A stretch of DNA of 64,000 nt, from assembly GCA_022449545.1 (NCBI GenBank), contig JAKUPN010000002.1, positions 123,255 through 187,254 of the forward strand, given 5' to 3'. Positions within the stretch are counted from its first letter, which is position 1. The number at the start of each line of letters is the position of its first letter. Positions 2,461 through 47,434 of this stretch are shown one piece after another. The notes under the pieces are model-generated. The model made no database searches. It was not told the origin of the DNA and saw only the letters and a list, made by a program, of their open reading frames with translations. The position numbers and the translations under genes are program-made. This DNA is from Alphaproteobacteria bacterium (lineage in GTDB: Bacteria > Pseudomonadota > Alphaproteobacteria > UBA6615).

Positions 2461-4854
2461 ATGGTCAATGAAACGATAACAGCTCCAGACGCAAGTGTTC
2501 TTGGTCGACCAAATTCGTATATTGGTCGAAGTGTGCCACGCCCTAATGCAAAACGACTTATGGCGGGGCAGGGCCAGTTTGTTGATGATATGAAACTTCA
2601 GCGCATGGTTCATGTCGCATTTGTTCGATCTCCTTATGCACATGCCCACATAAAAGGAATTGATACTAAAGCTGCTTCAAGTAGTCCCGGGGTCGTCAAA
2701 GTAATAACTGCAAAAGATTTAGAATCATATTGTTCTCCTTGGGTAGGAGTGTTAACCCATTTCAAAGGACTGAAATCGGCTCCTCAGCATCCGCTTGCGG
2801 CTGATCATGTTTGTTGGCAGGGAGAAGCGGTTGCCGCAGTCGTAGCAAATAGTCGTGCAGAAGCAGAGGATGCAGTCGCTTTGGTTGAGGTTTCATATGA
2901 AGAACTACCCGTAGTAAGCGAACCTGAAACTGCAGCAGATCCTTCTACGCATGTGATTCATCCCGAATTAGGAGATAATATTGCTTTCGAAAATTCAGTT
3001 GAGGCTGGTGATGTTGATTCAGCATTTAGTAACGCCGCTTTAATAGTAGAAGAAAACTTTCTTTTTGAACGCCACACAGGCGTTACGCTCGAACCTAGGG
3101 TTATGCTGTCTGATTACAATCAGACTGAGGACAAGTTAACTGTTTATATGTCTTTCCAGGCCCCTCACATGATGCAACATATTTTTGCTAAACATATCAG
3201 TGTGCCTGAGGGGAACGTTCGAGTTATTTGCCAAGATGTGGGAGGGTCGTTTGGCATAAAAGTACATATATACGCTGATGAGATGGCTACTGCGGCTATC
3301 TCTAAAATGTTAGGCAGGCCTGTTAAGTTTACCGCGGATAGGCTGGAGTCATTCGTAACTGATATTCACGCGCGACACCATAGGGTTAATGGACGTATGG
3401 CTTTTTCTTCTCAGGGAGAGATTTTGGGCATCGAAATAGACGCCCTAACTGGTATTGGCCCCTATTCGATGTATCCACGTACAAGCGCGATGGAAACGAA
3501 CCAAGTCTTAAACTTTACAGGCGGCCCCTATAAACATGAAAACTACAGGGCTAAATCTCAAGTTGTTTTTCAAAATAAAAATGTTATGTGCCAATATCGC
3601 GCTGTTGGCCATCCAATAGCATTTGCTGTCACTGAGGGCCTGCTAGAAAAGGGCGCCCATCAGTTAGAGATTGATCCAGTTGAAATTCGGCGGCTTAATT
3701 TAATTCCCGATGACGCATACCCCACTAAGGGAGCCAGCGGAATAATTCTAGAAGCATTGTCTCATGAGAAGAGTCTCGAGAAATTAATGGAAATGATGGA
3801 TTACGAGGCAATCAAAAGTGATCGGGATACACTTCGTGAATCAGGAGTTTATCGAGGCATCGGATTTGCAGCAATGATAGAGCTGACTAATCCAGGTGCG
3901 ATGATGTATGGGATTGGAGGGGCGCGTATTTCATCGCAGGATGGCGCTCAGGTGCGCCTTGATTCTGGTGGCTCAATTATAGTCCATCATAGTGTTACAG
4001 AGCAGGGTCAGGGGACAGATGCTATAATGGCTCAAATAGCTGCAACAGCCTTTGGAATTGAAATTGATAAAGTTCGGGTGGTTAGCGGAGACACAGATAA
4101 TGTGCCGACCGGCGGTGGAACATGGGGTTCTCGAGGTGCTGGCATAGGAGGCGAGGCTGTACTAATCGCATCTAAAGCCTTGCGCAATAACGTTGTCGAT
4201 TTAGCTGGACAGTTATTGCAGTCTGAGCCTGAGGCACTAGATATTGTTGAAGGCGTTATCGTCGATAAGGCGGATGGCACGGAACGCATGCCTTTAAGCG
4301 AAGTTGCAAGGATTGGTTATTTTCGCTCTGATTTAATACCGAAAGGTTTTCAAGCTGAGTTAATGGCAACCCGTCATTTCGTCCCTCGCGAATATAACAT
4401 TGCTTTTACAAATGGAATTCAAGCTTGTCATGTAGAGGTAGACCCTGAAACAGGTTTTGTAAAAATTTTAAAACATTGGGTTGTGGAAGACTGTGGCACA
4501 GTCATTAACCCTCTCCTGGTCGATGAGCAAGTACGGGGAGGTGTTATCTGGGGTCGCGGGGGGGCTTTACTTGAAGAATGTGTTTACGACGAAAGTGGTA
4601 ATATGATTAATGCGAATATGGCCGATTACCTGGTTCCTATGGCAATGGAGATGCCAGATATTGAAGTTGGGCATGTAGAAACACCGACAATGGATTCTGA
4701 GCTTGGCGCTAAGGGGGCTGGAGAAGCTGGAACCGCTGGAGCCCCAGCGGCAGTTATGAATGCGATCAATGATGCCATTAGGCCTTTTAACGCGCGTGTT
4801 TCTCATCAGCCGATTACACCGCAGAAGATTTTATCTGCTTTAGGAAAATTTTAG
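2461..4854 (+). CDS. xanthine dehydrogenase family molybdopterin-binding (large) subunit, CoxL/aldehyde oxidase-like
   Basis: The 797-aa product has a Mo hydroxylase large-subunit N-terminus and core (VAFVRSPYAHAHIKGID, GGSFG, GxGEAG near the C-terminus). A GGAG RBS is present. No adjacent FeS or FAD subunit genes were found. Confidence 0.8.
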   Translation: MVNETITAPDASVLGRPNSYIGRSVPRPNAKRLMAGQGQFVDDMKLQRMVHVAFVRSPYAHAHIKGIDTKAASSSPGVVKVITAKDLESYCSPWVGVLTHFKGLKSAPQHPLAADHVCWQGEAVAAVVANSRAEAEDAVALVEVSYEELPVVSEPETAADPSTHVIHPELGDNIAFENSVEAGDVDSAFSNAALIVEENFLFERHTGVTLEPRVMLSDYNQTEDKLTVYMSFQAPHMMQHIFAKHISVPEGNVRVICQDVGGSFGIKVHIYADEMATAAISKMLGRPVKFTADRLESFVTDIHARHHRVNGRMAFSSQGEILGIEIDALTGIGPYSMYPRTSAMETNQVLNFTGGPYKHENYRAKSQVVFQNKNVMCQYRAVGHPIAFAVTEGLLEKGAHQLEIDPVEIRRLNLIPDDAYPTKGASGIILEALSHEKSLEKLMEMMDYEAIKSDRDTLRESGVYRGIGFAAMIELTNPGAMMYGIGGARISSQDGAQVRLDSGGSIIVHHSVTEQGQGTDAIMAQIAATAFGIEIDKVRVVSGDTDNVPTGGGTWGSRGAGIGGEAVLIASKALRNNVVDLAGQLLQSEPEALDIVEGVIVDKADGTERMPLSEVARIGYFRSDLIPKGFQAELMATRHFVPREYNIAFTNGIQACHVEVDPETGFVKILKHWVVEDCGTVINPLLVDEQVRGGVIWGRGGALLEECVYDESGNMINANMADYLVPMAMEMPDIEVGHVETPTMDSELGAKGAGEAGTAGAPAAVMNAINDAIRPFNARVSHQPITPQKILSALGKF

Positions 4855-4893
4855 ATTTATTAATTAAGTAATTAAAAATTTGGTGAAGGTTTA

Positions 4894-5586
4894 GTGTCTG
4901 ATATTGAGATCATTAGCTCTGCAACATGTCCTTTTGCGCAAAGAACAAGAATGGTTCTTTTGGAAAAAAACATCAATTTTGCGCTAATTGAAATTGACCT
5001 TGAAGACAAGCCAGACTGGTTTAAGGAAATTTCTCCTTACGGTAAGGTTCCAGTATTAAAGCACGACGGTAATATCGTGGTTGAATCAAGTATTATCAAT
5101 GAGTACTTAGAAGAAGTTTTTCCCAAAAACCCCCTGTTGCCGCTTGAGCCATCTAAAAGGGCTTTAGCTCGTAGGTGGATTGATTTTTCGAATGTAAGAC
5201 TGATTCCATATATATATAAAATAATGTTGGCGCAGGATATTGAAGCGCAAAATTTCAATGCTAAAAAACTAACTCAAGCATTATTAATGATAGAACATGA
5301 TGGCCTGGGTTCAACTTCTTCAGGTCCATATTGGCTCGGAGAAGATGTGGGGCTTGTTGATTTAAGTTTTTTACCCCACCTTCAGCGCATTTGTGTTTTG
5401 GAATATTATAGGAATTTTTATATTCCAGCGGAATGCGTGCTTTTAAATGCTTGGCTTCAGTTAATGTCCTTACGTCCGTCTGTTAATGCGGTATCATCTG
5501 AAAAGAGTGAATTAATTAAAAATTGGTCTAAGTACGCCTTAAACACTAGCACTGGCACAACCGCTGAAGATATGCGTGACCAATAA
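4894..5586 (+). CDS. glutathione S-transferase family protein
   Basis: The N-terminus has a thioredoxin-fold signature (ATCPFAQRTRMVLLEKNI, VPVLKHDGNIVVESSIINEYL). It starts at a GTG. Confidence 0.65.
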   Translation: MSDIEIISSATCPFAQRTRMVLLEKNINFALIEIDLEDKPDWFKEISPYGKVPVLKHDGNIVVESSIINEYLEEVFPKNPLLPLEPSKRALARRWIDFSNVRLIPYIYKIMLAQDIEAQNFNAKKLTQALLMIEHDGLGSTSSGPYWLGEDVGLVDLSFLPHLQRICVLEYYRNFYIPAECVLLNAWLQLMSLRPSVNAVSSEKSELIKNWSKYALNTSTGTTAEDMRDQ

Positions 5587-5703
5587 ATTATGATGTATTG
5601 GAAAACAAAACTATCTGACCAAAATAATTATAGCTTAATTGTTGGCGATTAGCTCACCTGCTAAAAAACAAAAAGTTATTGCTTGCTTCGCGATGGAGAA
5701 AAA

Positions 5704-6936
5704 ATGGTACACATAAGTGAAATGCCTGAACATTTAGCAAAGGCTTTGATAAACCAAGAATTGCCTGTTTATGAATCTACCCCTTGGACTGATTTAAAAT
5801 CTCTCAAAGAAAGTAGGATTGCTTTAATTAGCACGGCTGGTCTGCACCGCAGCGTTGACTCTCCTTTTGTGGCGGGAGCTGGTGACTACAGAATTATTCC
5901 TGATGAATGGGACATGGATGATCTGGTAATGAGCCATGTGTCCACCAACTTCGATCGAACTGGATTCTTTCAAGACCTCAATACTGTCTTTCCCATCGAT
6001 CGACTACATGAGTTGGACGAGGAAGAAGTTATAGGCTCCGTAGCCTCTCGCCATTATTCATTTATGGGAGCTACTCCTCCGCATTTAATGGAAACTGTCG
6101 CACGTGATCTCGCTGGGCTTCTTAAAGAAGATGAGGTTAACGCTGTGCTTTTGGTTCCTGTCTGACCTCAATGTACGCGCGCCGTTGGCGGGCTGTCACA
6201 TGTTTTAGAAAGCGAAGGAGTAGCAACTACACATATAAGCTTGGTTCGCATTCATACTGAAAAGATGAAGCCTCCAAGGGCTTTAGCAGTTCCATTTGAA
6301 TTAGGCAGGCCGTTTGGTGCCCCTAATGAGGTCGAATTTCAAAGGAAAGTTCTGCATAACTGTCTCGAATTACTAGAACGAGAATCAGGCCCTGTCCTTG
6401 AGGATTTTTCTGATTTGCCGCCGGTTGATGAAAATCAAGGCTCAGAGAATTGGGCCTGTCCAGTTAATTTTGCTCCGCCTATGGATGATCTGAATGACGC
6501 AGATTTAATCTATCAGTCTTTATTACAAGAGACAAACCTTTTACGGCCTTGGTATGAAGAAGCGGTAAGGAACTATAAACGGTCAGCATTTGGTGTTTCA
6601 GGAAAGACAACAGCTGAGATTGTCAGATTTATTGCCGATCTTTTGGTTGATCCTCAAAATCAGCAGCCACCTATTGACGGCGTGAATCTTGGCACGGGAT
6701 TTAAAAGAATGGCTGATGATTTGCGTTATTTTTATACAGAAGCAGCTATAGCGCGTCCCGATAAAAAATCGTCCGATATTGATGTAGCTAACTGGCTTTG
6801 GGGTGAAACGACCTTGGGTAAGGTACTGGTGGCTATACGTGATTATGCTATGGAGTGCGATGAGCCGTCACTAAAAGTCTTGTCGGTAACAGCCATGGTG
6901 CCTAGCCATCAGCGTCATCGAACAAAGCACGGTTAA
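5704..6936 (+). CDS. glycine/betaine/sarcosine/D-proline reductase family selenoprotein B (GrdB-like); the in-frame TGA at 6163-6165 is read as selenocysteine
   Basis: Track ORFs 5683..6165 and 6241..6936 are in the same frame, and the 75 nt between them contain no stop other than the TGA. Read-through gives ...LLVPV-U-PQC-TRAVGG..., a U-x-x-C motif. A SECIS-like hairpin follows the TGA. The most likely start is the ATG at 5704, which has a GGAG RBS. The conceptual product is about 410 aa, matching the selenoprotein B family size. The family assignment is from recalled similarity, not a search. Confidence 0.6.
6171..6201 (+). promoter_or_regulatory. candidate bacterial SECIS element (SelB-binding hairpin) just 3' of the in-frame UGA
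   Basis: The sequence AUGUACGCGCGCC-GUUG-GCGGGCUGUCACAU lies at +6..+36 after the UGA. It has a lower stem AUGU/ACAU, a GC-rich upper stem GCGCGCC/GGCGGGC with one mismatch, and an apical G/U-containing loop about 20 nt from the UGA. It stands out as GC-rich in AT-rich surroundings. Confidence 0.45.
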
Positions 6937-6963
6937 TGATAAGGATACTTTTTTCTCTACTGA

Positions 6964-9186
6964 TTACTCAAATACTAGCGATGGTAGTGTTCCTCTGATT
7001 TCGTTGACAGAACCAATAATAGTTGCATCAGGTGCAGACGTTTTAATTAACTCTGCAACGCATTCCTCGGCAAAATCCTCGGAAATAGAGAATAAAAGTC
7101 CTCCAGCTGTTTGAGGGTCGAATAATATAGGATAGGCATTATGACTTATGGGTTTGTGGTAACCAGTCATGGCATTTTGATTGTCTTCCTTCAGGGTGCT
7201 CTCAATTCCTTGTCTGGATAGTTCTGCAGCTCCTTCTAGTAGCGGGAGCGAACTAAGATTTAGGGAGGCACTTACGTTGGAGGCGTTCAACATTTCCACT
7301 AAATGCCCTAACAAACCGAAGCCGGTTACATCTGTGCACGCTTCGACCCTATACTTTTGCAATATAGGAACAAGCGGCCCTAATGAACGCTGCATTGACG
7401 TTATTGCTTGTTCTATCCAGTCTCCACGAGACTTACCTTGCATATCGGCAGCAAATAATATTCCGGTGCCTAAAGGCTTAGTTAAGATTAGTATGTCTTG
7501 AGGCTTTAAAGCTCCTTTGCGCATGATTTTTTCTGGATCAACGTAACCGTTGACAGTCAGCCCAAATGCCATTTCAGCCCCTTCTCCGGTATGTCCTCCT
7601 GCTAGGACTGCATCTGCTTCACTAAGTGTTTTTGTGGCTCCTAACAATAGCTGATAAAGATCGTCTGAAATGATATTTTCATTATTATGTGGCAATAGGA
7701 TGGCCGCAAGCGCTGAGTGTGGTTTAGCTCCCATGGCGAAAATATCTCCTAAACAATGATTAGAAGCTATTTGTGCAAATATATAGGGGTCATCAATGAA
7801 ACTACGAAATTGATCAACGCTTTGAATCAATGCTTTGCCCGACGGTGGAATTATTACAGCAGCGTCATCCGGTGATTCTAGGCCCTGCACCAATCCCTGT
7901 TTAGTTTGGGCAGGCAGTCTATCCAAGGCTTGATGCAGAATTGTTGAAGCAACTTTAGCGCCACAACCGCCACATCGCATTTCCTCTATAATATCATCTT
8001 TACCGTTTGATTTTTTTGTGGCCGACATCTGAGGTAAATTTTGGTATTTTTCTATCCATCTGCGATCTATCCAGTCTTTCCAATGCCAGACCCATTTTCC
8101 TGAGAGCATTATAGAGCCACGAGCTGCGATTGCTCTGCCATCCCCGGTCGTAATTAATGCCAGTGTTTGTTTTTGGGGTTTATATTTTTTTAAGGGAAAT
8201 TCGATAGCTGCTCGTCTTAAGTTCTCTGCTAAGTATGGCCCTTGACGAACTGCATATACCCCTGACTTTGGTAAGTCATAGTTTTCAAGGGATGCTATGT
8301 CACCGGTTGCATAAACTATAGGATGTGAAACAGAACGCAGATTTTTATCTATCCTAATAAAGCCGTTCCGATCTAGGGCTAATCCTGTATCTGCTAGCCA
8401 AGAGGGGGCCTCAGCATTTGTAACCAAGATTGTTCTATCTGCTGGTAATATTTTTCCATTAGAAAGAATTACACTATCAGTGTTAATTTGATTTATTTTT
8501 GTGTCCGTTATAGCCGTAATTCGTCGCTTTTTTATTACATCAATTATTTTTCTTCTAGCAGTCTTATTGAAGTTTGGAAGTAGAGTGCTGAAACCTTCAA
8601 TTATAAAGATTGATAATTTTTCTGGTGTCTTAATTAACGAATGATTGCTGCTTCGTAATTGTTGGTCTAATGATAGGCTCAACTCTACCCCGCCAGCTCC
8701 TCCCCCAACGATAACAATATTATAATTATCTGATTTATCTGAGATTTCTTTATTAATTTCAGCCTGTTCTTTTAAAAAGAGATTGATTGGCTTGACAGGC
8801 AAGGCGTTTTCAGCGCCGCTTATGTCGGAAGATTTTGGGACACTACCGGTGTCAAGTGACAGTAAGTCGAACCTAACATCTGGCCTTCCATCGACGGATA
8901 TTAATCTTTTCGATAAGTCTAGATTTGTAGCTGATGCATGAATAAATCTTGCCCCCGCGAATTTGCTAAGTTTCCGTAGATCTATGAGACTTTCATCTGT
9001 TTTATAGTTTTGTGCTATCAGTCCTGGCACCATTCCAGAATATGGAGTTACAAGATCGCGTGAAATTAAAGTAACCCTCAATCCAGACTGCGGTTTCATA
9101 CCAAACTTTTTTAATACGTGCAGATGACTGTGACCGCCACCGACCAGAACGACATCTTTTTGAAAAGGTTCAGAATTAGTATGCAT
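6964..9186 (-). CDS. selD: selenide, water dikinase SelD fused to an N-terminal FAD/NAD(P)-dependent pyridine nucleotide-disulfide oxidoreductase (NADH dehydrogenase-like) domain
   Basis: The N-terminal half has two Rossmann motifs (VVLVGGGHSH and IVIVGGGAGGVE). The C-terminal half carries the SelD catalytic motif RCGGCGAKV and PurM-like segments (LTKPLGTG, TDVTGFGLLGHL). The track start at 9252 would overlap the tRNA-Sec, so the start was moved to the ATG at 9186 (MHTNSEPF...). Confidence 0.8.
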   Translation of the reverse strand: MHTNSEPFQKDVVLVGGGHSHLHVLKKFGMKPQSGLRVTLISRDLVTPYSGMVPGLIAQNYKTDESLIDLRKLSKFAGARFIHASATNLDLSKRLISVDGRPDVRFDLLSLDTGSVPKSSDISGAENALPVKPINLFLKEQAEINKEISDKSDNYNIVIVGGGAGGVELSLSLDQQLRSSNHSLIKTPEKLSIFIIEGFSTLLPNFNKTARRKIIDVIKKRRITAITDTKINQINTDSVILSNGKILPADRTILVTNAEAPSWLADTGLALDRNGFIRIDKNLRSVSHPIVYATGDIASLENYDLPKSGVYAVRQGPYLAENLRRAAIEFPLKKYKPQKQTLALITTGDGRAIAARGSIMLSGKWVWHWKDWIDRRWIEKYQNLPQMSATKKSNGKDDIIEEMRCGGCGAKVASTILHQALDRLPAQTKQGLVQGLESPDDAAVIIPPSGKALIQSVDQFRSFIDDPYIFAQIASNHCLGDIFAMGAKPHSALAAILLPHNNENIISDDLYQLLLGATKTLSEADAVLAGGHTGEGAEMAFGLTVNGYVDPEKIMRKGALKPQDILILTKPLGTGILFAADMQGKSRGDWIEQAITSMQRSLGPLVPILQKYRVEACTDVTGFGLLGHLVEMLNASNVSASLNLSSLPLLEGAAELSRQGIESTLKEDNQNAMTGYHKPISHNAYPILFDPQTAGGLLFSISEDFAEECVAELIKTSAPDATIIGSVNEIRGTLPSLVFE

Positions 9187-9216
9187 GAATAGCTTTAGTG
9201 TTATAGAAATTGATTG

Positions 9217-9312
9217 TGGCGGAAGAGAGTGGGAGTCGAACCCACCAGGCACGTCTGACGCCCCTCACCGGATTTGAAGTCCGAGCGCCCCACCGGGGTG
9301 CGATCCTCTTCC
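9217..9312 (-). tRNA. selC: tRNA-Sec (selC), anticodon UCA
   Basis: The reverse complement reads GGAAGAGG-AU-CGC(A)CCC[CGGU]GGGGCG-CUCGGA[CUUCAAA]UCCGG-long variable arm-GUGGG[UUCGACU]CCCAC-UCUCUUCC-G-CCA. It has an 8-bp acceptor stem, a 5-bp T stem, a D-arm with a CGGU loop, a UCA anticodon in a CUUCAAA loop, a long extra arm and an encoded CCA. It is 96 nt long. Confidence 0.85.
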
Positions 9313-9500
9313 ATGGTTATTTTCCTCGTCTTTTGATTGTGAGACAAGTCCTCTGACAATAAAGAATTTTTCATAGTTCAATTTGGCTTTTTTGATTTAG
9401 AGTAGTAAGTTGCTTGTTGAATATAATAGTTTTTTGGTAAAATGAACTTAATCGAGTAGAGTAAATTTTTGCGATAAAGTTACCTGATCTGGGGGTTAAA

Positions 9501-9821
9501 ATGACTAGTGATGATGTTGGTGGTGTTTTGTTACAATTCTTTGCACTGCCTTTAGTAGTAATATTTATTTGTACTCTAGTACTATTGATAAACAGATATA
9601 AAGACCTTAGGGGAGATATTCCTTGGGTTGATACACAACGTGAAGCATATATATCTTTAGTCGTTGGTGCCATCGTGACGGTTGTTGTGACATTGATAAT
9701 AGGAGGCCCGGAACTCTTCGTATTATATTGGCGACCACTTATAACAACGGTGATTACATTGCCTATAGGGTTTGGTGCGGCTCTTGTTGTTTTCGGATGT
9801 TGGCATAAACTCAGAAATTAG
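9501..9821 (+). CDS. hypothetical small membrane protein
   Basis: The 106-aa product has three hydrophobic helices. It has no recognisable family. Confidence 0.35.
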   Translation: MTSDDVGGVLLQFFALPLVVIFICTLVLLINRYKDLRGDIPWVDTQREAYISLVVGAIVTVVVTLIIGGPELFVLYWRPLITTVITLPIGFGAALVVFGCWHKLRN

Positions 9822-9834
9822 AACAAAGAATTTC

Positions 9835-10650
9835 TTATTCATTGGTTGTTGAGAAGTTCGCTTCTTCTAGGCTGCCAGCTCCAGTGAGAACGTTATAGAT
9901 TTCCAGTTCGTTTTCTTCATCTAGGTTTTCTATCCAATGTGGAGTTGATCTAGGAACATAAACAAAAGTTCCTCTGCTCACTTCTTCCTGAAAATTTCCG
10001 GATCCCACTAATCCATTCCCATTGGAAACGTAATAGATTTGCTCACAATTATCACTAAAATAACTATCTCCTCTTATTCCTGAAGAAATACAAACATTAA
10101 TTAAAGCGTTTTTACTTCCGTTATGGTTTCCTATTGGTACTCTAATCTCTTCTGATTTCCATGGATTATTAGCTTCAATTATTTTCAATGATTCTTCAAT
10201 TCGTATAAGGATACCTTCTTTTAAACCGCCACGAGGAGAATTTAAATCTTCAGCACAGGCATCACCGATAAACTTATAGCCTGTGTTAGGAACGGACGAA
10301 GCGCCAATGTAAAACCCTATTACCTCGGCTTCTTCTTTTGCTTCATTGTAGAAAAAATGCTCTGATCCACGAGGCATTAACCTGCAATGGCCAGCATTAA
10401 CATTTGCACGACTGTTGCTCTGGCCTACTACTCCGTGACCTTTGAGATAAATGGCTATTTCATCGCACTCACTATGCAAGTGCTTAGAGTGGGTCGAGCC
10501 AGATCTAAAAATTGAATGAAAAACAGCTGTAGAGCTTCCCTGTGCACCCGTGATTGGTAAACGGAACTCGGAGATTGCCCAACCATCTTTTTTTTCCATT
10601 CTCTCAATACTGACATCTTTAATATGAGTAACAGTTATTTTCTCTGTCAT
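9835..10650 (-). CDS. cupin domain protein (bicupin)
   Basis: The product shows two cupin-like beta-barrel motif regions (HxH...E...H patterns). Confidence 0.45.
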   Translation of the reverse strand: MTEKITVTHIKDVSIERMEKKDGWAISEFRLPITGAQGSSTAVFHSIFRSGSTHSKHLHSECDEIAIYLKGHGVVGQSNSRANVNAGHCRLMPRGSEHFFYNEAKEEAEVIGFYIGASSVPNTGYKFIGDACAEDLNSPRGGLKEGILIRIEESLKIIEANNPWKSEEIRVPIGNHNGSKNALINVCISSGIRGDSYFSDNCEQIYYVSNGNGLVGSGNFQEEVSRGTFVYVPRSTPHWIENLDEENELEIYNVLTGAGSLEEANFSTTNE

Positions 10651-10819
10651 TCAATTTTCCAATCATAAATTAAATTTTTTAAAAGTTTTTCCTTTTCATG
10701 AGGCCTTCGCTAAATAGAATTTTATAGAGTATTCTTACATTTTAGCTGTAACTAGATGAGGCTCCTATATTAAACTCAACTTGGTAAGCTATATGATAAA
10801 AACGTGGAAAGAGTAAAGT

Positions 10820-11905
10820 ATGCTTCAAAGAAAACCTCGTATCGTTGTTTTAGCTGGAGATGGTATTGGGCCCGAGGTCATGAATTGTGCTATGTCCGTG
10901 TTGAGGAAGCTGCTCTCTCGGGTTTCAGATATAGAAATAGATATTTTGCAGATGGATGCAGGGGCAAATTCTTATCTTCAAACTGGCACCGCTCTTTCTG
11001 AAAAAGTAATTGAGTGTATAAGTAATTCAGATGGGGTATTACTTGGAGCCATGGGTTTGCCTAACGTCCGGTATCCAGATGGCACAGAGATAATACCTCA
11101 GATAGAATTGAGGAAAATATTTTCTCTTTATGCTGGTGTTAGACCTATTCGTTTGCTACCTGGAGCTATTACCCCTCTATCAGATGTTCGAGTTAAAAGC
11201 CTTGATTTTACGATTATTCGAGAATCTACAGAGGGTCTCTTTGCGCATATGAATGAAGGAAAAGTAGAAAACAACCAGGTTGCTGAGGATAAATTAGAAA
11301 TCACCAGAGAAGCATCAGAACGAGTTTTTGATTTCGCGTTTCGTCTCGCGGAAAATAGAAAAAAATTAGGATATCCTGGGAAAGTAACCTGTATAGACAA
11401 AGCAAATGTCTTTAAGTCTATGGCGTTTTTCAGACAAATTTTTGAGGAGCGAGCTGTTTTTTTCCCAAACATCATAACTGAAGTACAATATGTTGATGCT
11501 GCTGCTTTGAATTTAGTTCTAAGGCCATGGGATTATGATGTTATAGTTACGGAAAATATGTTTGGAGACATTCTTTCCGACCTTGGGGCAGGATTGATAG
11601 GCGGCATGGGAATGGCTCCATCTGGAGATATTGGTGATAAAATCGCCGTATTTCAGCCAAGTCATGGGACTGCGCCAGACATTGCGGGAATGGGCAAGGC
11701 TAACCCCACTGCTATGATTTTATCTCTGGTCTTATTGCTAGAGTGGTTGTCTAATCAGGGGTTTGGAGAAGCTTTTAATGAGGGAGCTAAATTAGTAGAT
11801 ATTGCTGTCTGTAAAGCATATCAGAAAAAGACACTTTTTCCTTATGAAGTAGGAGGAAATGATGGCACCCAGGTAATTTTGAACCAAATTCTAGAGTATC
11901 TTTAA
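10820..11905 (+). CDS. isocitrate/isopropylmalate dehydrogenase family oxidoreductase (tartrate/D-malate dehydrogenase-like paralog; distinct from leuB)
   Basis: Family motifs are present: [29 protein letters not shown] and [15 protein letters not shown]. Confidence 0.75.
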
Positions 11906-11960
11906 TCTTGTACCAAAAATTAATTTAGTTTGTTTATTATGTTTTTTTAAATGATGGTTT

Positions 11961-13895
11961 TTAATCATCATTATTCTTTTCGGTGCTGGGGAAAAGTTTA
12001 TTAATGGCGCCTATCTGCTTTCGAGTGTTGCCTTCGCGTTTGGAAAGTCCTGAGCGATCAAAAAACTCTAATATTTCAATAGTTAGATTACGCCCAATTT
12101 TGGTGTGATCTTTAAACACTCTGGGGCTTACCCCTTGAAGTTCACTTTGGGATAAATCGGAGAAAATATTTGCTAAATTTTTTATTGCGCTTGTTTCAAA
12201 AAACCGGTTTTTCCCGACTTGAATAACTAAGCCAGCTTTAGCCGCATTACGCAGAGCAGTCATCACTACTTCAGGTGGTTTGCTTATTTCGTTCGCTAAG
12301 TCGTGAATAACAGGCGGTTGAAACGGTTTATTAGTTATGATGGGCTGGATCTCTTTCCACAAATCCAAATCTTTCTGATCTAAAATTGGTTTACGATTCG
12401 GCTTGTATAAGAACATACCATCAGATGAAATTATGTTTTCATCTACTAAAGAGTTTACTATTTCAGAAAAGACACCATCAATTAGTTTTCTTTTTATGTT
12501 TTGGTTTAGCTGTAATAAACTGGGACCTATCTTGTTACTATGATTTATATGATACTCATCAAGTGCAGACAGTGCCTCGTCTCGTAAAACGCCCCATATA
12601 GCCTTGGACAAAGCTATTATTCGCTGGTTGGGGCTAATAATAATTGCTTTAAGGTCTGTCGCTAATTTGGTTGCCTGCCCAACAGGCAAATTTCTTGTAA
12701 TTGAAAAAAGCTCTATATCTAGACCCGAAGGTGACAAATTTAGAGCCTTTTCTAATGCGATAGAATCGTCTTCATTATTAAGAGCCTCCAGCATTCTAAC
12801 TCTTTCTTGGCGGGCGCGACCTCGATTAGGAGGAAAAATATCGATTACATACCCACCACCAACTGTACGCTGGGCGGATTGATCTCTAATTATAAATCGA
12901 TCTCCTGCCACAGCCCCTATTGGGGTATCAAGAACCAATTGTGCAAAGGAATCTTCCCCAGGAATTACTTTTTCATTATTTAAAAGGGCAATACGTCCTG
13001 TTACGTCAGCTGCGCCAAGGTGTACATGCACTGATGTCCAGTGTTTAAAAGGTCGTTTTTCGTTTTCTAAGATACTTAAGTTAACATCTATCTTTCTTAT
13101 CGTTTTCATTAAAGGGTTAGAGACCACCCAATCTCCTCTCCGTACCAGTTCCTTGTCAATGCCACTTAAGTTTATAGCGCAACGTTGACCAGTAGAACCG
13201 TCTTCTGAGCTTTGGCTGTTAGCCCGTATGTCTCTTACACGGGCCGACCTCATTGTATTTGTTAAATAGACTTGATCTCCAACTTTTATTTGGCCGGAAA
13301 AAATAGTTCCTGTGACAATTAGGCCCGCTCCAGGCTTTATGAACGCTCTGTCAATAGCTAACCTAAACTCTCCGCTATCTGTTCTATTTTTTGGGTTTTT
13401 TGCAACATGTAAAAGGTGATCTGTGAGAGACTCTATCCCTCGTCCAGTAACGGCAGAAACAGGAAAAATAGGAAAATTTTTTAAGTTAGTGGCACTCAAT
13501 AAATTGGTTGTTGATCTAGTTACTTCTTCTATTCTATTTGATTCAACTCTATCAATTTTTGTAAGAGCTACGGCTCCTTCGCTGATTCCCAGTATATCCA
13601 ATATTGCCAAATGCTCTCTTGTTTGTGGCATCGGCCCATCGTCGCTTGCTATTACAAGTAATGCATAATCTATGCCAGTTACTCCAGCTAGCATGTTGCC
13701 TATGAATCTTTCATGTCCAGGAACGTCAACAAAACCAATAACTTTTTGTTCTTGGTATTGATGGTATGCGAACCCTAAATCAATAGTCATCCCCCGTTTT
13801 TTTTCTTCAGGCAGGCGATCGGCATCTTCTCCAGTTATTGCTTTAACTAAGAGGGTTTTTCCATGATCGATATGTCCAGCAGTAGCTATTATCAT
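11961..13895 (-). CDS. selB: selenocysteine-specific translation elongation factor SelB
   Basis: The N-terminus [44 protein letters not shown] is near-identical in pattern to E. coli SelB. The 644-aa product has a C-terminal winged-helix extension, and its start overlaps the selA stop. Confidence 0.85.
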
Positions 13896-15304
13896 TTTAA
13901 ATTTAATAAGGACATTTGAGAAACTAGTTCTTCTTCGTTTTCAAGGCATCTCAAATCCAACCAGTAAGAATCATTCATTATTCGACCAATAACTGGAACA
14001 GGTAATGATCTTAAACGTTCTGATAGTTGTTTAAGCACAGCTCCTTGTCCTTTTTTAACTATCGGAGATATTACTAGAGCATAACTATCAAGGTTCTCTA
14101 TAGGAAGAGCCCCACTACCAATTTGACTTCGGGTTGGTAAAACCTTGATCTTAAAACTATTACCGAGTTTTTTTCTGAGTTCAGCCGCTGTTCTGTCTGC
14201 CATCTCTTTTATTTCATCTGATGATCGAGTTAATATGCGCAATGACGGCAAACGTTTCATCAGTCGATCGGGATCGTTATAAAGACGAAGTGTTGCGGCC
14301 AAACAAGCGATGGTTATTTTATCACAACGCAGAGCACGCTTAAGTGGATTTTTCTTGAGTCTTTTGATCAGGTCAGATCGTCCAACGATTAATCCTGCTT
14401 GCGGCCCTCCCAAAAGTTTATCGCCTGAAAAGGTTACTAGATCAGCTCCATCTTTTATTGATTCTTGGGGAGTTCTTTCATGCGGCAAACCATAAACTTC
14501 GAGGTCCACCAAAGTTCCACTTCCTAAATCAACCACCAAGGGCAGTTCATATTTGTGGGCTAGAGTTGCAAGGTCGAGTTCTGATGCGGCACTAGTGAAG
14601 CCTTCAATAACATAGTTTGATGTGTGGACAGCCATTATTAGACCTGTTTTTGGACCAATAGCCTTTTCAAAATCAGAAAGATGGGTTCTGTTTGTCGTTC
14701 CTACTTCGATAAGGCGGCAATCCGATCGAGACATGATATCAGGAATCCGGAATGAACCCCCTATCTCGACCAACTCGCCTCTCGAAACGGGGACTTCCTT
14801 TTTTCTCGCTAAAGTATTTAGGACTAACATCACTGCGGCAGCGTTGTTATTAACCACTGTCGCTGCTTCAGCTCCGGTAAGAGAACAGATTAAATCTTCT
14901 ATATGGTCATCTCGATCGCTTCTCTCGCCTCTCTCTAAATCGAATTCTAAATTAGTTGTGCCAGAAGCAACCTCTTTCATGGCCTCAATAGCTTCAGAGG
15001 CAATTGGCGATCGCCCCAGGTTTGTGTGTAAAACTGTGCCGGTTAGGTTTAATACTGGCTTTAGTGTCGGTTTGTTGGCGCTATGGAGATAATCAGAAAC
15101 TAGAGATAAAATTTTATTTTCTTTAAAATCGAAGGTTGTTGTTTTTGATGTGCTTAGTTCTTTGCGTATGTCTTTGAGCACTGACCTGACCGCACTAACA
15201 GTTGCTTTTCGCCCGAACGATTCAATTAGCGCTATGAATGGTTCAGAGCGAAGTAAACGATCTACTGAAGGCAGTTTATAAAAGCCTGACATATTATTTT
15301 TCAT
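13892..15304 (-). CDS. selA: L-seryl-tRNA(Sec) selenium transferase SelA
   Basis: The N-terminus (YKLPSVDRLLRSEPFIAL) matches SelA, and the 470-aa product shows a PLP-fold. It overlaps selB by 4 nt (ATGA). The start may be the second ATG. Confidence 0.85.
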   Translation of the reverse strand: MKNNMSGFYKLPSVDRLLRSEPFIALIESFGRKATVSAVRSVLKDIRKELSTSKTTTFDFKENKILSLVSDYLHSANKPTLKPVLNLTGTVLHTNLGRSPIASEAIEAMKEVASGTTNLEFDLERGERSDRDDHIEDLICSLTGAEAATVVNNNAAAVMLVLNTLARKKEVPVSRGELVEIGGSFRIPDIMSRSDCRLIEVGTTNRTHLSDFEKAIGPKTGLIMAVHTSNYVIEGFTSAASELDLATLAHKYELPLVVDLGSGTLVDLEVYGLPHERTPQESIKDGADLVTFSGDKLLGGPQAGLIVGRSDLIKRLKKNPLKRALRCDKITIACLAATLRLYNDPDRLMKRLPSLRILTRSSDEIKEMADRTAAELRKKLGNSFKIKVLPTRSQIGSGALPIENLDSYALVISPIVKKGQGAVLKQLSERLRSLPVPVIGRIMNDSYWLDLRCLENEEELVSQMSLLNLK

Positions 15305-15455
15305 AGACTTTGTAATTATTGTGAATTTTCTTTTTATATTTACCTAAATTTATTATTAACTGGTACTAATGTGAACTGCTAGGATCTGCTTATATTAGAA
15401 GATCAGATAATAATATACCTAATAGCCCAAAAAGGCTCTATGATATGACATTGCT

Positions 15456-16475
15456 ATGATTAAATTAAGCGTACTCGATCAATCGCCCGTTCGTTCAGGG
15501 GGAACCCCTGCTCAGGCCATCGAAGAGACTATCAGATTAGCTCAAAAAGCCGAATCTTTAGGTTATAGCAGGTATTGGTTGGCTGAACATCATGGAACTG
15601 ATGGTTTTGCAGGATCGTCTCCTGAAATTTTGGTGACTCGAGTTGCAGCCGCGACTAAGCAAATTAGAGTAGGATCAGGTGGTGTGATGTTAAGTCACTA
15701 TAGTCCTCTGAAAGTAGCTGAAAACTTCTCCCTTCTTGAAAACATGTTTCCCGATAGAATAGATCTTGGAATAGGAAGAGCGCCGGGTAGTGACGGTTTA
15801 ACTGCAGCAGCGTTAGCTTATGGAAATCAGTTGGGAATTGAATATTTTCCGACTAAAATTGCTGATATGACTGCGTTCTTATCGGGTAAGGCGCCCCTAT
15901 CAGAACCTTTTAAGGGTGTGAGAGCAACGCCCGTGTCTCCTTCACTTCCAGAATTGTGGTTATTGGGGTCTAGTGATCAGAGTGCTTCTTATGCAGCCCA
16001 TTTTGGACTTGCCTACTCATTTGCTCATTTTATAACACCGTATTCCAGTGAAGCTATTGTAGAGCACTACAAAGAAAGTTTTCGCCAGTCTCCTGCAAAT
16101 AGTGAACCAAGGGTAAACCTTGGAGTGTTTGTAATATGTGCTGACACGATGGAGGAAGCTGAGTATTTAGCGTCGAGTAGAGATTTTTGGCGTCTAAAAT
16201 TAGGACAGGGTCAACATCTTCCATATCCCTCACCTCAAGAAGCCTTGAATTACCAATATACAGATAATGAAAAAGCAATAATAGAACAAAATAAGATCAA
16301 TAGGTTTGTAGGTGATCCGGAGTTTATTAAAAATAAACTAGAAGATCTTGCCAGAGCACATGGAGCAGAAGAATTGGTTATTTTAACCATTACCTATGAT
16401 TTTGAGGCCCGAATGAGGTCATATCAACTTTTGGCAGATGCGTTTGGACTCAAAAACCAAAAAGATGCGGCTTAA
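15456..16475 (+). CDS. LLM-class flavin-dependent oxidoreductase (luciferase-like monooxygenase family)
   Basis: Motifs include YSRYWLAEHHG, RIDLGIGRAPG and a TIM-barrel LLM pattern. Confidence 0.7.
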   Translation: MIKLSVLDQSPVRSGGTPAQAIEETIRLAQKAESLGYSRYWLAEHHGTDGFAGSSPEILVTRVAAATKQIRVGSGGVMLSHYSPLKVAENFSLLENMFPDRIDLGIGRAPGSDGLTAAALAYGNQLGIEYFPTKIADMTAFLSGKAPLSEPFKGVRATPVSPSLPELWLLGSSDQSASYAAHFGLAYSFAHFITPYSSEAIVEHYKESFRQSPANSEPRVNLGVFVICADTMEEAEYLASSRDFWRLKLGQGQHLPYPSPQEALNYQYTDNEKAIIEQNKINRFVGDPEFIKNKLEDLARAHGAEELVILTITYDFEARMRSYQLLADAFGLKNQKDAA

Positions 16476-18110: not shown

Positions 18111-20438
18111 TTAATTTTTATTCAGAGCTGCCCATAATTTCTCTGAGGTAGCTGGCATGTCCATTTCGGTTATATTATGCATTGAGAGGGCGTCAATGAT
18201 CGCATTCATGCCAGCTGGTAAAGCTCCAGTGGTTCCTGCCTCACCTGCTCCTTTTGCCCCAATGGGGTTTGTGGTACAGGTGACACTGTGAAATCCTAAA
18301 TTCATCATAGGAAGGTCATCTGCTCTAGGCATCATATAGTCCATAAAAGAACCAGACAGAAGCTGTCCCTCCTTATCATAAACTGCGTGTTCTCCAAGAA
18401 CTTGGCCCAACCCTTGTGCGACCCCCCCATGGACTTGCCCGTGAACTATCATTGGATTTATCACGGTCCCACAATCATCTACGGCAGTGTAGCCGACAAC
18501 TTCTATTTCCCCAGTCTCTGAGTCGATTTCAACTTCACAGATATGACAACCATTCGGGTAGGTTTGTTCTGGAGATGTAAAATTTTCTTCTGAGTCCAGA
18601 CTTTTAGGTATGTCACGAGGCAAATTATTAAGTAATTTTATCTTTGTGGCTAACTCAAAAATATTGATTACTCTGTCGGTCCCAGTAATTCGGAAATTAC
18701 CATCAGAATATTCAATATCTGCGGAAGATGTTTCAAAAATGTGTCCTGCCAGCTTGCGTCCTTTTTCAATGACCGAGTCTATTGTGACAGATAATGCTCC
18801 ACTCGCTAAAACAGCAGAACGGGAGGCAACTGAAGCAAACCCAGTGGCTGGGGTATTTTCACTGTTTCCCTCTATGATGCGAACTTTTTCGAATGGCACA
18901 TCTAGTAACTCTGACACGACTTGGGCAAAGGAGGTTTGATGTCCTTGGCCATTGGATTGTACTGCTAGAACCGCATTGACAAACCCATCATCTGAAAACT
19001 CTATCTTAGCTCCTTCTTCAAGGTAACCTCCAGCGGTTTCGACAAAACAAGCCATCCCGATCCCTCTTAATTTTCCTCTTGATTGGGCCTCAGTTCGACG
19101 TTCTTCAAATTGTTCCCAGTTTGACAACTTTAAGGCTTTATCCATTGCCGCCTCAAATTCTCCACTGTCGTATTTTTGTTCCAAAGATGTTGTGTAGGGC
19201 ATCTTTGCGGGATGAATAAAATTTCGGCGTCTAATTTCAACACGATCTAGCCCGGTTTCCCTCGCTGCCTCATCCATAAGTCTCTCAAGTATATAAGCTG
19301 CCTCGGGACGCCCTGCGCCCCTGTAGGGTCCTATCGGAAGGTTATTTGTCAAAACACAACGTACACGAAAATGAACCGACGGATTATCATAACAACCTGT
19401 TAGACAATTACAGACATTTCTCGTCGCTGCAGCTGGTCCATGAGAGGACAAGTAGCCCCCCATAGAGGCTAACATGTCCACACGTAGACCAAGTATTTTT
19501 CCATTTTCGTCCAAAGCTAATTCACCTCTGATTACCCCATCCCGGGCCTGGTTATCGCTTAAAAATGCTTCAGATCTGCTTCCCTGCCATTTCACTGGTC
19601 GACCGACTTCTTTTGCTGCGTAAAGGCAGGCCACGTATTCTGGATAAGCCTGCGTTTTCATTCCAAATCCACCACCGACATCTTGGGTAACAATATGAAT
19701 TTTTTCGGGAGGTACTTTAAAGATGGATTCTGCGAGCATTCGGCGCATGGCGTTTACTCCTTGTGACCCAGAGAAAAGTTGATACCTTTCGTTTTCTTCA
19801 TCCCATATTGCGTTTGCACTCCGAGGTTCCATCGAGGCTGCTACAATTCGATTAGTTTTCAGAGTTAATTTAGTTATGTGGTGAGCGTTAGAAAAAGCTA
19901 TGTCAGTATCTTCTTTTTTACCAATTCGGAAGTCTAGGCAAATATTATTGGGCATATTATCCCAGAGTTGGGGCGCGCCTTCTGCTACAGCTTGTTCCAG
20001 GTCGACCACAGAGTCGAGGAGTTCATAGTCTATATCAACCAGCTCAATTGCGTCAGTAGCTAAAGAAATGCTTTCAGCTATCACCATTGCAATGATTTCC
20101 CCAACGTGACGTACTTTTTCATGAGCCAATGCAGGTCTCATTGATAAAGCCATTGGAGAGCCATCATAGTTTGGGAAGGGTGTCATATTTGGGATATCCC
20201 CAATTTTTGAATTCTGAAGGTCTTTTCCAGTAAATACCGCAATTACTCCGGGGGCATCCTTTGCTGCGCTAGTATCTATTGATTTAAGTAACGCATGAGC
20301 GAATGGTGCCCTTAGGAAGGCGACATAGGCTTGATTATTAAAAGATTTATCGTCGGTATATTTTCCAGCGCCAGTAATCAAGTTTTCATCTTCTTGACGC
20401 AGGACGTGTTGTGAAATACCAAAAGTCCCGGCAGACAT
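18111..20438 (-). CDS. xanthine dehydrogenase family molybdopterin-binding (large) subunit, second paralog
   Basis: The 775-aa product has a Mo hydroxylase large-subunit pattern (AFLRAPFAHALLKSID, GGGFG, GAKGAGEAG). No FeS or FAD subunit genes are adjacent. Confidence 0.8.
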   Translation of the reverse strand: MSAGTFGISQHVLRQEDENLITGAGKYTDDKSFNNQAYVAFLRAPFAHALLKSIDTSAAKDAPGVIAVFTGKDLQNSKIGDIPNMTPFPNYDGSPMALSMRPALAHEKVRHVGEIIAMVIAESISLATDAIELVDIDYELLDSVVDLEQAVAEGAPQLWDNMPNNICLDFRIGKKEDTDIAFSNAHHITKLTLKTNRIVAASMEPRSANAIWDEENERYQLFSGSQGVNAMRRMLAESIFKVPPEKIHIVTQDVGGGFGMKTQAYPEYVACLYAAKEVGRPVKWQGSRSEAFLSDNQARDGVIRGELALDENGKILGLRVDMLASMGGYLSSHGPAAATRNVCNCLTGCYDNPSVHFRVRCVLTNNLPIGPYRGAGRPEAAYILERLMDEAARETGLDRVEIRRRNFIHPAKMPYTTSLEQKYDSGEFEAAMDKALKLSNWEQFEERRTEAQSRGKLRGIGMACFVETAGGYLEEGAKIEFSDDGFVNAVLAVQSNGQGHQTSFAQVVSELLDVPFEKVRIIEGNSENTPATGFASVASRSAVLASGALSVTIDSVIEKGRKLAGHIFETSSADIEYSDGNFRITGTDRVINIFELATKIKLLNNLPRDIPKSLDSEENFTSPEQTYPNGCHICEVEIDSETGEIEVVGYTAVDDCGTVINPMIVHGQVHGGVAQGLGQVLGEHAVYDKEGQLLSGSFMDYMMPRADDLPMMNLGFHSVTCTTNPIGAKGAGEAGTTGALPAGMNAIIDALSMHNITEMDMPATSEKLWAALNKN

Positions 20439-46318: not shown

Positions 46319-47434
46319 ATGGCTGCGAATAGAAAGATATTAGTTCTACCGGGAGATGGCATAGGGCCTGAAGTAATGGCGCAGGTTCAGCGAGTTATAG
46401 ATTGGTTTGACAATAAGGGTAGTGTTAGATTTGAGGTTACTGAAGACCTCGTTGGCGGAGCCTGTTACGATAGCCATGGAGTCTCTATCCGTGAAGAAAC
46501 AATGGAAATAGCTGTTTCAACTGACGCAGTGCTTTTTGGAGCAGTTGGGGGCCCCAGTTGGGACGATGTGCCTAGAGAGCACCGTCCTGAAGCGGGCTTA
46601 CTTAGGCTAAGGAAGGATCTTGATTTATTTGCAAACTTAAGGCCAGCAATTGTTCTTGATGCTATGGTTGAATCTTCTACCCTTAAGTCTGAGATTGTTA
46701 AAGGGTTGGATATAATAATTCTGCGTGAACTTACCTCTGGAGTTTATTTTGGTGAACCTCGTGGTGAACAGATAATGGATGATGGAACAAAGAGAGTCGT
46801 AGACACTCAAGCTTATACCGAAGATGAAATAGTTCGAATACTCCGTGTTGCTTTTGAACTCGCACGCCAACGAAAAAACAGAGTTCACTGTGCCGAGAAA
46901 TCGAATGTAATGGAGACAGGCGTTTTTTGGCGTCAAATTTCTGCTCGTGTTGCAAGGGAAGAGTATCCTGATGTTGAGTTTGATCATATTCTAGCTGACA
47001 ATTGTGCTATGCAATTACTGCGTGATCCGCATCAATTTGATGTGATTGTTACGGATAATTTATTTGGTGATATACTATCTGATGAAGCTGCAATGATGAC
47101 TGGTTCACTTGGAATGCTGCCTTCAGCCAGCTTGGGTAACCCTGATCCGGTAACGGGAAAACGTTACGCGATGTATGAGCCCGTGCATGGGTCTGCTCCA
47201 GATATTGCTGGGGAAGGAAAAGCAAACCCTCTTGCAATGCTTTTAAGTTTTTCGATGATGCTCCGTTACTCTTTTGATTTGCCAGAAGAGGCAGATCGTG
47301 TGGAGACAGTCGTTCAAAATGTTCTCAATGAAGGGTTTCGCACAGGTGATATAATGCAAGATGGTTGTCATCTTGTATCCACGGAAGAAATGGGCTCAAA
47401 TCTTTTATTGGAGTTAGATCGGTCTGTTCAATGA
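46319..47434 (+). CDS. leuB: 3-isopropylmalate dehydrogenase
   Basis: It has [26 protein letters not shown] and [17 protein letters not shown]. It sits in the leuCDB context. Confidence 0.9.

Follow-up and report, generated by a model that had tools for sequence, protein, structure and literature searches.

The stretch analysed here, hereafter called the window, is 64,000 nucleotides (nt) of the Alphaproteobacteria bacterium assembly GCA_022449545.1 (contig JAKUPN010000002.1, positions 123,255 to 187,254). At window positions 5704–15304 a selenoprotein gene lies beside the genes for selenocysteine (Sec) decoding, which raises the question of whether these genes form a transferable selenium-trait island or a resident part of the chromosome, and of what the selenoprotein is. 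The region was found to be, very probably, a chromosomal Sec-decoding gene set grouped around one client gene (the selenoprotein gene) in an uncultured marine alphaproteobacterium, inherited vertically and not a mobile island. The locus is an unexceptional and well-preserved case of something already known, a Sec-decoding set clustered with its client.

The gene order, strands and coordinates given in an initial annotation of this DNA, and the complete Sec-decoding set that it placed beside the selenoprotein gene, were all found as listed. The ATGA overlap that it reported between the selA stop codon and the selB start codon was located at 13892–13895 by direct reading of the sequence. The central components are the following:

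5704–6936, + strand: selenoprotein (client) gene of 410 codons with a single in-frame TGA, predicted Sec154 in the motif U-P-Q-C; matches Pfam GRDB.
6163–6165, + strand: predicted Sec-read UGA codon, residue 154; TGA in 81 of 81 related loci, Cys in rare homologues.
6172–6198, + strand: hairpin resembling a selenocysteine insertion sequence (SECIS), with a G/C-rich upper stem and a G-U-N apical loop 19–21 nt past the UGA.
6964–9186, − strand: fusion of an NADH-dehydrogenase-like (Ndh) protein, a pyridine nucleotide-disulfide oxidoreductase, to SelD, 740 amino acids (aa); matches TIGR03169, TIGR00476 and Pfam Pyr_redox_2, AIRS and AIRS_C.
9217–9312, − strand: selC, tRNA-Sec, 96 nt, anticodon UCA, encoded CCA; found with ARAGORN and Rfam.
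11961–13895, − strand: selB, Sec-specific elongation factor, 644 aa; matches TIGR00475, Beta-barrel_SelB, SelB_WH_2nd_bact and SelB-wing_3.
13892–15304, − strand: selA, selenocysteine synthase, 470 aa; matches TIGR00474, and its stop overlaps the selB start.

The reading frame of the client gene, which has GGAG 5–9 nt ahead of its ATG, is interrupted solely by the TGA at 6163–6165, in the context L-L-V-P-V-U-P-Q-C-T-R-A-V-G-G. Relatives were collected in a scan of one genome per species, which yielded 389 stretches encoding a relative; 80 loci were kept, or 81 with one further locus. In these 81 loci the aligned codon was never TAA or TAG, and the surrounding motif was [P/G]-[V/I]-U-P-x-C-T. 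Rare full-length homologues that carry Cys at the Sec position (P0068 with PVCLLC and P0119 with PVCPNC) are continuous polypeptides. The other database relatives, which fall into 542 clusters at 50% identity (E <= 1e-10), are nearly all 153-aa fragments ending at the TGA or fragments of ~250 aa starting just after it, and only 2 of the best 120 matches and ~4 of the best 150 cluster representatives were full-length.

The hairpin at 6172–6198 was compared across 76 distinct sequences, in which five core pairs are at least 95% paired and one pair covaries, with three changes from G-C to C-G and one to A-U. Fourfold-degenerate sites are 91–96% fixed in the stem versus 41–75% in the loop and flank, despite a genome GC content at third codon positions (GC3) of ~0.32. 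The fdhF element of E. coli has a similar apical G-U spacing, 19–21 nt past the UGA. Three findings weigh against the hairpin: folded alone, the window sequence is not better than its shuffles (z = 0.48), RNAalifold favours a slightly shifted register, and the covariation is confined to a single pair. As the single-sequence fold is no better than shuffles, the support for the hairpin comes from comparison and not from energy, and the register of the minimum free energy fold of the window was preferred because the RNAalifold register explains fewer of the frozen wobble sites.

Nearly every database entry is annotated as if the TGA were a true stop between two genes, one encoding a 153-aa PrdB-like protein and the other a hypothetical protein of ~250 aa. 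Gene callers split the client in this way everywhere, and the unremarkable energy of the single-sequence hairpin would also fit a stop. However, the interrupting codon is specifically TGA in every one of the 81 loci, with the two pieces always in frame and 3 nt apart, and the Cys-containing homologues are single polypeptides. The AlphaFold2 (AF2) model of P0068 folds over the junction as one domain, the synonymous sites that are frozen fall into a hairpin correctly spaced from the TGA, and a complete Sec machinery adjoins the gene. A true stop was therefore considered extremely improbable and, on the comparative sequence evidence, the TGA at 6163–6165 is read as selenocysteine.

The Sec machinery itself was identified by profile scores well above the relevant cut-offs. 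The only tRNA in the 64 kb is tRNA-Sec (ARAGORN, anticodon TCA; Rfam RF01852, 72.5 bits versus a gathering score of 47), which folds with 7+6 stacked pairs (a 13-bp acceptor/T helix), a long extra arm and an encoded CCA. SelA scores 598.6 bits with TIGR00474 (cut-off 267.9) and SelB 450 bits with TIGR00475 (cut-off 242.25), the latter with the C-terminal winged helices PF25461, PF21214 and PF09107. The 4-nt overlap of selA and selB is also called in the related locus L007.

The selD fusion was described in the initial annotation as convergent on the client, which is the case, the two stop codons being separated by 27 nt. However, the open reading frame (ORF) listed for it, 6964–9252, overlaps selC, and the true start was placed at the ATG at 9186, which is 30 nt past the selC 3' end; the resulting 740-aa product is also called in L001. 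The N-terminal half of the fusion scores 419.4 bits with TIGR03169 (cut-off 310) and the SelD half 289.6 bits with TIGR00476 (cut-off 125), while the protein fell short of the 'fusion_not_SelD' model (510 versus 700 bits). The SelD active site reads R-C-G-G-C-G-A-K, i.e. C-x-x-C plus Lys, and a C-x-x-C at this site is a feature of all published Ndh-SelD fusions (PMC2398784). Such fusions made up ~40% of the Cys-type SelDs in the Global Ocean Sampling (GOS) data (PMC2398784). They are the commonest SelD fusion, and a role of the flavoprotein half in reducing a selenium compound for use by SelD has been proposed (PMC2432076, PMC4561486). The distance from selC to the start of the fusion is 26–93 nt in 27 of the 27 related loci having both, a spacing that suggests that selC is co-transcribed with the Ndh-SelD fusion. 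A promoter and terminator scan of 4700–15600 gave counts no higher than those in shuffles (27 versus 24.8 and 7 versus 8.4), and operon boundaries therefore remain inferred.

The client had been called GrdB-like. That it encodes a selenoprotein was borne out, but its profile scores are nearer to PrdB than to GrdB and it belongs to neither family. Pfam GRDB (PF07355) matches only residues 27–151, at 35.8 bits versus a gathering score of 22. The best curated match is PrdB TIGR04483 (E = 3e-33, profile positions 13–219 of 238), at 115 bits versus a cut-off of 300, while scores with the GrdB model TIGR01917 (45.7 versus 602 bits) and the umbrella subfamily TIGR01918 (44.7 versus 65.45 bits) were lower still, and the GrdF and GrdH cut-offs were also missed. 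The client motif is U154-P-Q-C157 followed by T-R-A, and it does not include the third Cys of the GrdB-type U-x-x-C-x-x-C. In published lists, U-x-x-C is given for both PrdB and GrdB (PMC9312934) and U-x-x-C-x-x-C is the GrdB motif (PMC13188914).

The product consists of a PrdB-like N-terminal alpha/beta domain (residues ~1–225) and a family-specific helical C-terminal domain (~259–410). AF2 models were made for the Cys homologue P0068 and for the post-TGA part of the window protein. The P0068 model (predicted local distance difference test score, pLDDT, 86.5) is a Rossmann-like alpha/beta fold in which Cys121, the equivalent of Sec, lies between strand 114–118 and helix 122–137, with Cys124 in the first turn of that helix. 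The modelled arrangement is typical of a redox-active C-x-x-C. The last ~150 residues of the window protein are modelled as a helical domain with pLDDT >90. No solved structures resembling either part of the client were found beyond generic folds.

A protein with these features might be a genuine subunit of a Stickland-type reductase, either D-proline reductase PrdB or protein B of a glycine, sarcosine or betaine reductase. The Pfam GRDB gathering score is passed, PrdB is the best NCBIfam match, the U-x-x-C motif is present, and JGI and NCBI label the 153-aa fragments PrdB or selenoprotein B. However, the PrdB, GrdB and TIGR01918 cut-offs are all missed, the third Cys of the GrdB motif is missing, and the protein has 410 aa including a conserved helical domain that is not part of the 238-position PrdB profile. 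In addition, PrdA, GrdA, GrdC, GrdD and GrdE were found neither among the genes of the 64-kb window nor among the recurrent neighbours of the 80 loci. A Stickland role was accordingly judged very improbable.

The client family is evidently the marine 'proline reductase PrdB' group of earlier surveys. In the Sargasso Sea, 'proline reductase PrdB' was the third-ranked selenoprotein, with 42 Sec versus 1 Cys forms (PMC1088965), and in the GOS data 'PrdB' was among the most abundant selenoproteins, with 235 Sec versus 110 Cys forms (PMC2398784). Judged by the profile, partner and domain comparisons, the name 'proline reductase' appears not to be justified.

The genes that accompany the client and the sel genes were compared across the 80 loci by neighbour clustering. 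Many of the resulting clusters consisted of antisense ORFs from GC-rich genomes (cluster 1, for example, runs antisense to the client) and were ignored. The neighbours in the window are the following:

2461–4854, + strand: large subunit of a molybdenum (Mo) hydroxylase of the xanthine-dehydrogenase family, left flank; matches Ald_Xan_dh_C, MoCoBD_1 and MoCoBD_2; cluster 4, 28 loci.
4894–5586, + strand: Cys-type glutathione-transferase-like (GST) gene with a C-P-F-A motif; matches Pfam GST_N_2, GST_N_3 and Glutaredoxin.
9501–9821, + strand: predicted membrane protein, 106 aa; no Pfam or NCBIfam match, tblastn matches in relatives; cluster 11, 12 loci.
9835–10650, − strand: bicupin, 271 aa; matches Pfam Cupin_1 and Cupin_2, twice; between selC and selB across the clade.
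10820–11905, + strand: Iso_dh-family paralogue; matches Pfam Iso_dh at 274 bits and reaches no NCBIfam equivalog cut-off.

The closest genome is the metagenome-assembled genome (MAG) 'Alphaproteobacteria bacterium MarineAlpha12_Bin1', in which the client has 91% protein identity and the gene order is as in the window, including the Iso_dh gene and a luciferase-like oxidoreductase gene in the right flank. Among the 36 loci with a client at least 57% identical (the close clade), the Ndh-selD gene is convergent on the client in 30, and the Mo hydroxylase, GST, client, Ndh-selD and selC genes are likewise conserved in 30. The six exceptions are L016–L019, in which a close homologue lies in a different context with no sel gene within 10 kb, L022, where the contig ends 65 nt past the gene, and L037, which is a second copy (L032 and L037 are two separate client loci in one MAG, and the MAG of L037 also has the standard locus).

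Mo hydroxylase and GST genes are found upstream in nearly all close-clade loci, with the GST gene directly adjacent to the client in about two-thirds. The left Mo hydroxylase and GST genes precede the client in ~28 genomes, often with the hydroxylase as a tandem pair. In the window, two Mo-hydroxylase large-subunit paralogues, 31% identical, bracket the locus (2461–4854, + strand, and 18111–20438, − strand), with no adjacent genes for iron–sulfur (FeS) or flavin (FAD) subunits. A trait of selenium-dependent Mo hydroxylases was considered because of these two flanking genes and was rejected, as the window contains no YqeB-, YqeC- or XdhC-type gene and the TIGR03311 score was 230 bits versus the required 830.

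The initial annotation had placed three unrelated genes between selC and selB. Three genes are present there, but two of them, the membrane protein and bicupin genes, recur as a conserved part of this neighbourhood among related genomes and are found beyond selC in many close-clade loci. The gene for the 106-aa protein, which is predicted to have three membrane helices, and the bicupin gene form a convergent pair, which many of the clade's genomes retain in the interval between selC and selB. The Iso_dh paralogue is confined to closer relatives (L008, L010, L013 and the metagenome contigs L090 and L092–L094; 75–94% identity) and is absent from L007. Its product is 35% identical to that of the true leuB, which lies beside leuCD at 46319–47434 on the + strand, and its best matches are archaeal-type isopropylmalate/homoisocitrate and tartrate dehydrogenases. 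A gene of the isochorismatase family adjoins selA in the closed 4.33-Mb MAG chromosome of L007 (18080–18748) and is absent from the window; genes of this family have been noted beside orphan selD genes (PMC5029168).

The selB gene was found within 10 kb of the client in 13 loci, and all four sel genes within the available flank in 7, of which 6 are distinct. In L033 and L039, selA, selB, selC and Ndh-selD are contiguous and convergent on the client, and for this reason the layout in the window is best read as that of an ancestral selA-selB-selC-NdhselD operon, which in this clade would later have been interrupted between selB and selC when the membrane protein, bicupin and Iso_dh genes were inserted. 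A caution is that the direction, a split and not a fusion, is inferred from two contiguous examples and no rooted tree.

Distant loci, with a client less than 52% identical, mostly lack sel genes, with 40 of the 44 having none within the available flank. The remaining four have the orders selA-selB-selC-client (L059 and L062), client-selC-selA-selB (L080, Puniceispirillum) and selC-selD-client (L074). Across lineages, the client family is found beside sel genes in five different arrangements. Adjacency within 10 kb by chance in a 4-Mb genome would be expected at a rate of roughly 0.5%, and the linkage of client and sel genes was therefore taken to be real and recurrent.

Other contexts were also seen among the related loci. 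In one distant subclade (L044, L048, L050, L057, L064, L070 and L085), two conserved genes of ~247 and ~120 aa without a Pfam match precede the client, often with major facilitator superfamily (MFS) transporter genes further upstream, and the client family may have a different functional context there. A guess that a small gene upstream of distant clients encodes an AhpD-like selenoprotein was dropped, since it has no Pfam match. In a further group (L065–L068, L072, L079, L081 and L086), tandem clients lie between putative murJ and trpS genes and downstream of a putative glnD, among apparent housekeeping genes and with no sel genes within 10 kb. Clients of ~50% identity were found in typical proteobacterial contexts in contigs of MAGs labelled 'Klebsiella pneumoniae' (L052, CAMDRJ010000066.1) and 'Flavobacteriales' (L062, CAZCVU010000001.1). 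These taxon labels are probably binning or labelling errors, and caution is therefore needed over the spread of the family at the phylum level.

The initial annotation had proposed the locus as a candidate for horizontally transferable DNA, and tests of composition, mobility genes, repeats, plasmid and phage records and synteny were all negative for this in the present lineage. At 0.406, the GC content of the locus is close to the window mean of 0.412 (z = −0.76), and in tetranucleotide usage it lies at a smaller distance than the average for the window (z = −1.12). GC3 is 0.28–0.36 in the genes of the locus (0.30–0.36 in the sel genes) versus 0.29–0.33 in the housekeeping genes pgk, ffh, leuB, leuC, asd and nadB. 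No integrase, transposase or conjugation genes were present in the Pfam lists for the 64-kb window, the remainder of which consists of core genes (pgk, ffh, rpsP, trmD, rplS, leuBCD, asd and nadABC). The 3' end of selC occurs once, with no att-like copy, and no repeats flank the block. Searched against 72,556 plasmid and 50,697 phage records, the post-TGA part of the client had no match.

Comparison with relatives gave the same picture. The initial annotation had left it to synteny to show whether the block is indel-variable; the interior does vary by insertion and deletion, but synteny of the block with its two flanks holds in all related genomes and contigs that extend far enough, ~30 species-level genomes and 5 metagenome contigs, and the protein identities of flank, client and sel genes fall together across relatives. 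An empty site was not seen among ~35 related genomes or contigs that have the flank genes and enough sequence. When metagenomes were scanned with the GST gene as the anchor, five contigs with an orthologue of at least 68% identity and usable flank were recovered. The client adjoins the GST gene in all five, and the four with enough downstream sequence all carry Ndh-selD, selC and the membrane protein, bicupin and Iso_dh genes. Two of the metagenome contigs have an extra Mo-hydroxylase large-subunit gene after Iso_dh (L092, 8678–9601; L093, 17337–19643), 42–44% identical to the right-hand one of the window; in L093 it lies between Iso_dh and selB, and L092 ends inside it, marking a further indel within the block. 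The conservation of the flanks along with the block and the absence of an empty site argue against an island, by the initial annotation's own standard that universal synteny in the clade would speak against one.

Several observations would nevertheless fit a horizontally acquired selenium-trait island in which the sel genes and the client move together between genomes. The family is found beside sel genes in five arrangements in lineages only 45–60% identical, members occur in MAGs labelled SAR202, Acidimicrobiia and Thermodesulfobacteriota, the interior of the block is indel-variable, and transfer of the Sec trait has been reported to need clustered sel genes and a co-transferred selenoprotein gene (PMC1794560, PMC5029168). 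Against this, the block resembles the remainder of the window in its GC content, GC3 and tetranucleotide usage. No integrase or transposase was found in 64 kb of otherwise core genes, and there was no att-like selC copy, flanking repeat, or plasmid or phage match. Flanks and block are conserved together in the ~30 species-level genomes with no empty site seen, and some of the phylum labels reflect doubtful MAG binning, as with 'Klebsiella pneumoniae' on L052. Such an island is unlikely, and vertical inheritance of a chromosomal set remains the preferred reading.

The initial annotation had also suggested that the client is the main or only use of Sec in this organism, and the analysis leaves this plausible. 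No formate dehydrogenase was present among the Pfam matches across the 64 kb, as that annotation had stated for the locus. Apart from pairs antisense to real genes, no further TGA-interrupted genes were found in the 64-kb window, nor any plausible N- or C-terminal extension bounded by a TGA, and selU/ybbB, yqeB and yqeC are likewise not among its genes. The recurrence of the family beside sel genes in five arrangements also speaks for single use. According to earlier work, proteobacteria whose clustered sel genes adjoin fdhA have no selenoprotein gene other than fdhA (PMC1794560, PMC5029168), and this precedent makes the single-use idea reasonable, though no more than that. Weighing against single use, two Sec paralogues in tandem, each with an in-frame TGA, were present in about 20 of the 80 related loci, six of them from the close clade, and one MAG has two separate client loci (L032 and L037). 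Where the tandem paralogues occur, Sec is used by more than one gene, albeit within a single family. Tandem copies were recorded in L020, L023, L028, L031, L038, L043, L044, L047, L065–L068, L072, L079, L081, L085 and L086; they are 50–60% identical to each other's counterparts, and the window has a single copy.

By analogy with the established bacterial pathway, the tRNA-Sec encoded by selC would be charged with serine, and SelA would turn Ser-tRNA-Sec into Sec-tRNA-Sec using selenophosphate made by the Ndh-SelD fusion, whose flavoprotein half would supply a reduced selenium compound to the SelD half. SelB would then bind Sec-tRNA-Sec and the hairpin 3' of UGA154 in the client mRNA and insert Sec, and the ATGA overlap would couple the translation of selA and selB. 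In the Rossmann-like domain of the client, as modelled, Sec154 would cap the N-terminus of a helix with Cys157 in its first turn, forming a U-x-x-C redox pair. The client may be a thiol- or selenol-dependent reductase that acts without the pyruvoyl partner of the Stickland reductases. More speculatively, it would cycle between selenol/thiol and selenenylsulfide forms and be re-reduced through glutathione by the adjacent Cys-type GST. This last link is weak because genes for a tripartite ATP-independent periplasmic (TRAP) transporter, inserted between the GST gene and the client, separate the two in about six related loci, a point that counts against the proposed pairing.

A closer tie to the neighbouring genes can be envisaged, in which the client is part of selenium handling itself, e.g. 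by generating or carrying reduced selenium for Ndh-SelD. This would explain the linkage to sel genes, which is tight and recurs in five architectures, among them selC-selD-client in L074 and the client beside selC in L059, L062 and L080, and it would suit the convergence of client and Ndh-selD in 30 of the 36 close-clade loci. However, 40 of the 44 distant loci have no sel gene in the available flank, L016–L019 have none within 10 kb, and the client family is missing from most Sec-using bacteria. Moreover, co-inheritance already accounts for such linkage, as it does for fdhA (PMC1794560). A part in selenium handling was therefore regarded as quite improbable. The broader proposal that the client is a dedicated partner of its neighbours, either as a selenium-handling reductase feeding Ndh-SelD or as the terminal selenol-dependent reductase of a pathway with the Mo hydroxylase and the Cys-type GST, is decidedly unlikely. 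Were it a terminal reductase of this kind, an aerobic catabolic role would be defined for the most abundant orphan family of marine selenoproteins.

The locus is of little consequence for general biology. Publications from 2005 to 2015 had already described Sec gene clusters with a linked client, the marine PrdB-like family and the Ndh-SelD fusion. What was not found described in the literature searched is the client family as a sel-linked client, the invariant pair of selC followed by Ndh-selD, and the full-length two-domain gene model. Public annotation splits the client into a 'PrdB' fragment and a 'hypothetical protein', and for the marine 'PrdB' family there is now a gene model of full length, together with a genomic context, the latter arguing against the public 'proline reductase' label. 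In one uncultured alphaproteobacterial clade it is this PrdB-like family, not formate dehydrogenase, that stays linked to the Sec apparatus. The set is compact, with six parts (the client with its SECIS, selC, Ndh-selD, selA and selB), and transferring it to a host would allow the function of the family to be tested.

The components of the locus can each be set beside known systems. The fusion shows no material difference from the published Ndh-SelD fusions, with which it shares the N-terminal flavoprotein domain, the Cys-type SelD and the C-x-x-C of the active site (PMC2432076, PMC2398784, PMC4561486). The client resembles the marine 'PrdB' family of the surveys in its match to pfam07355, its U-x-x-C motif, the predominance of Sec over Cys forms, its marine origin and its abundance (PMC1088965, PMC2398784). 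However, the surveys worked from short reads under the name 'proline reductase' and gave no gene context (PMC1088965, PMC2398784), whereas the window provides a full-length protein with PrdB-like and helical domains, no PrdA, and linkage to the sel genes.

Clostridial PrdB (TIGR04483) and GrdB (TIGR01917) are also similar, in that the N-terminal 225 residues of the client cover nearly the whole PrdB profile and the predicted Sec lies in U-x-x-C. In contrast to these, the client is far below the equivalog cut-offs, has no pyruvoyl or Grd partner genes in the window and carries an extra C-terminal domain of ~150 aa, and its host is a marine alphaproteobacterium with neighbouring genes of aerobic type.

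The closest parallel for the locus as a whole is the fdoGHI/fdhA-selABCD arrangement of Alpha-, Beta- and Gammaproteobacteria, in which, as in the window, a full chromosomal Sec set is clustered with a selenoprotein gene and selA and selB are translationally coupled (PMC1794560, PMC8124441, PMC5029168). The window differs in several respects: its selC lies outside selB, three other genes interrupt the operon, the selD gene is fused to Ndh and comes directly after selC, and the client is PrdB-like and not a formate dehydrogenase. In both arrangements, the linked selenoprotein is plausibly the principal client of the Sec-decoding set.

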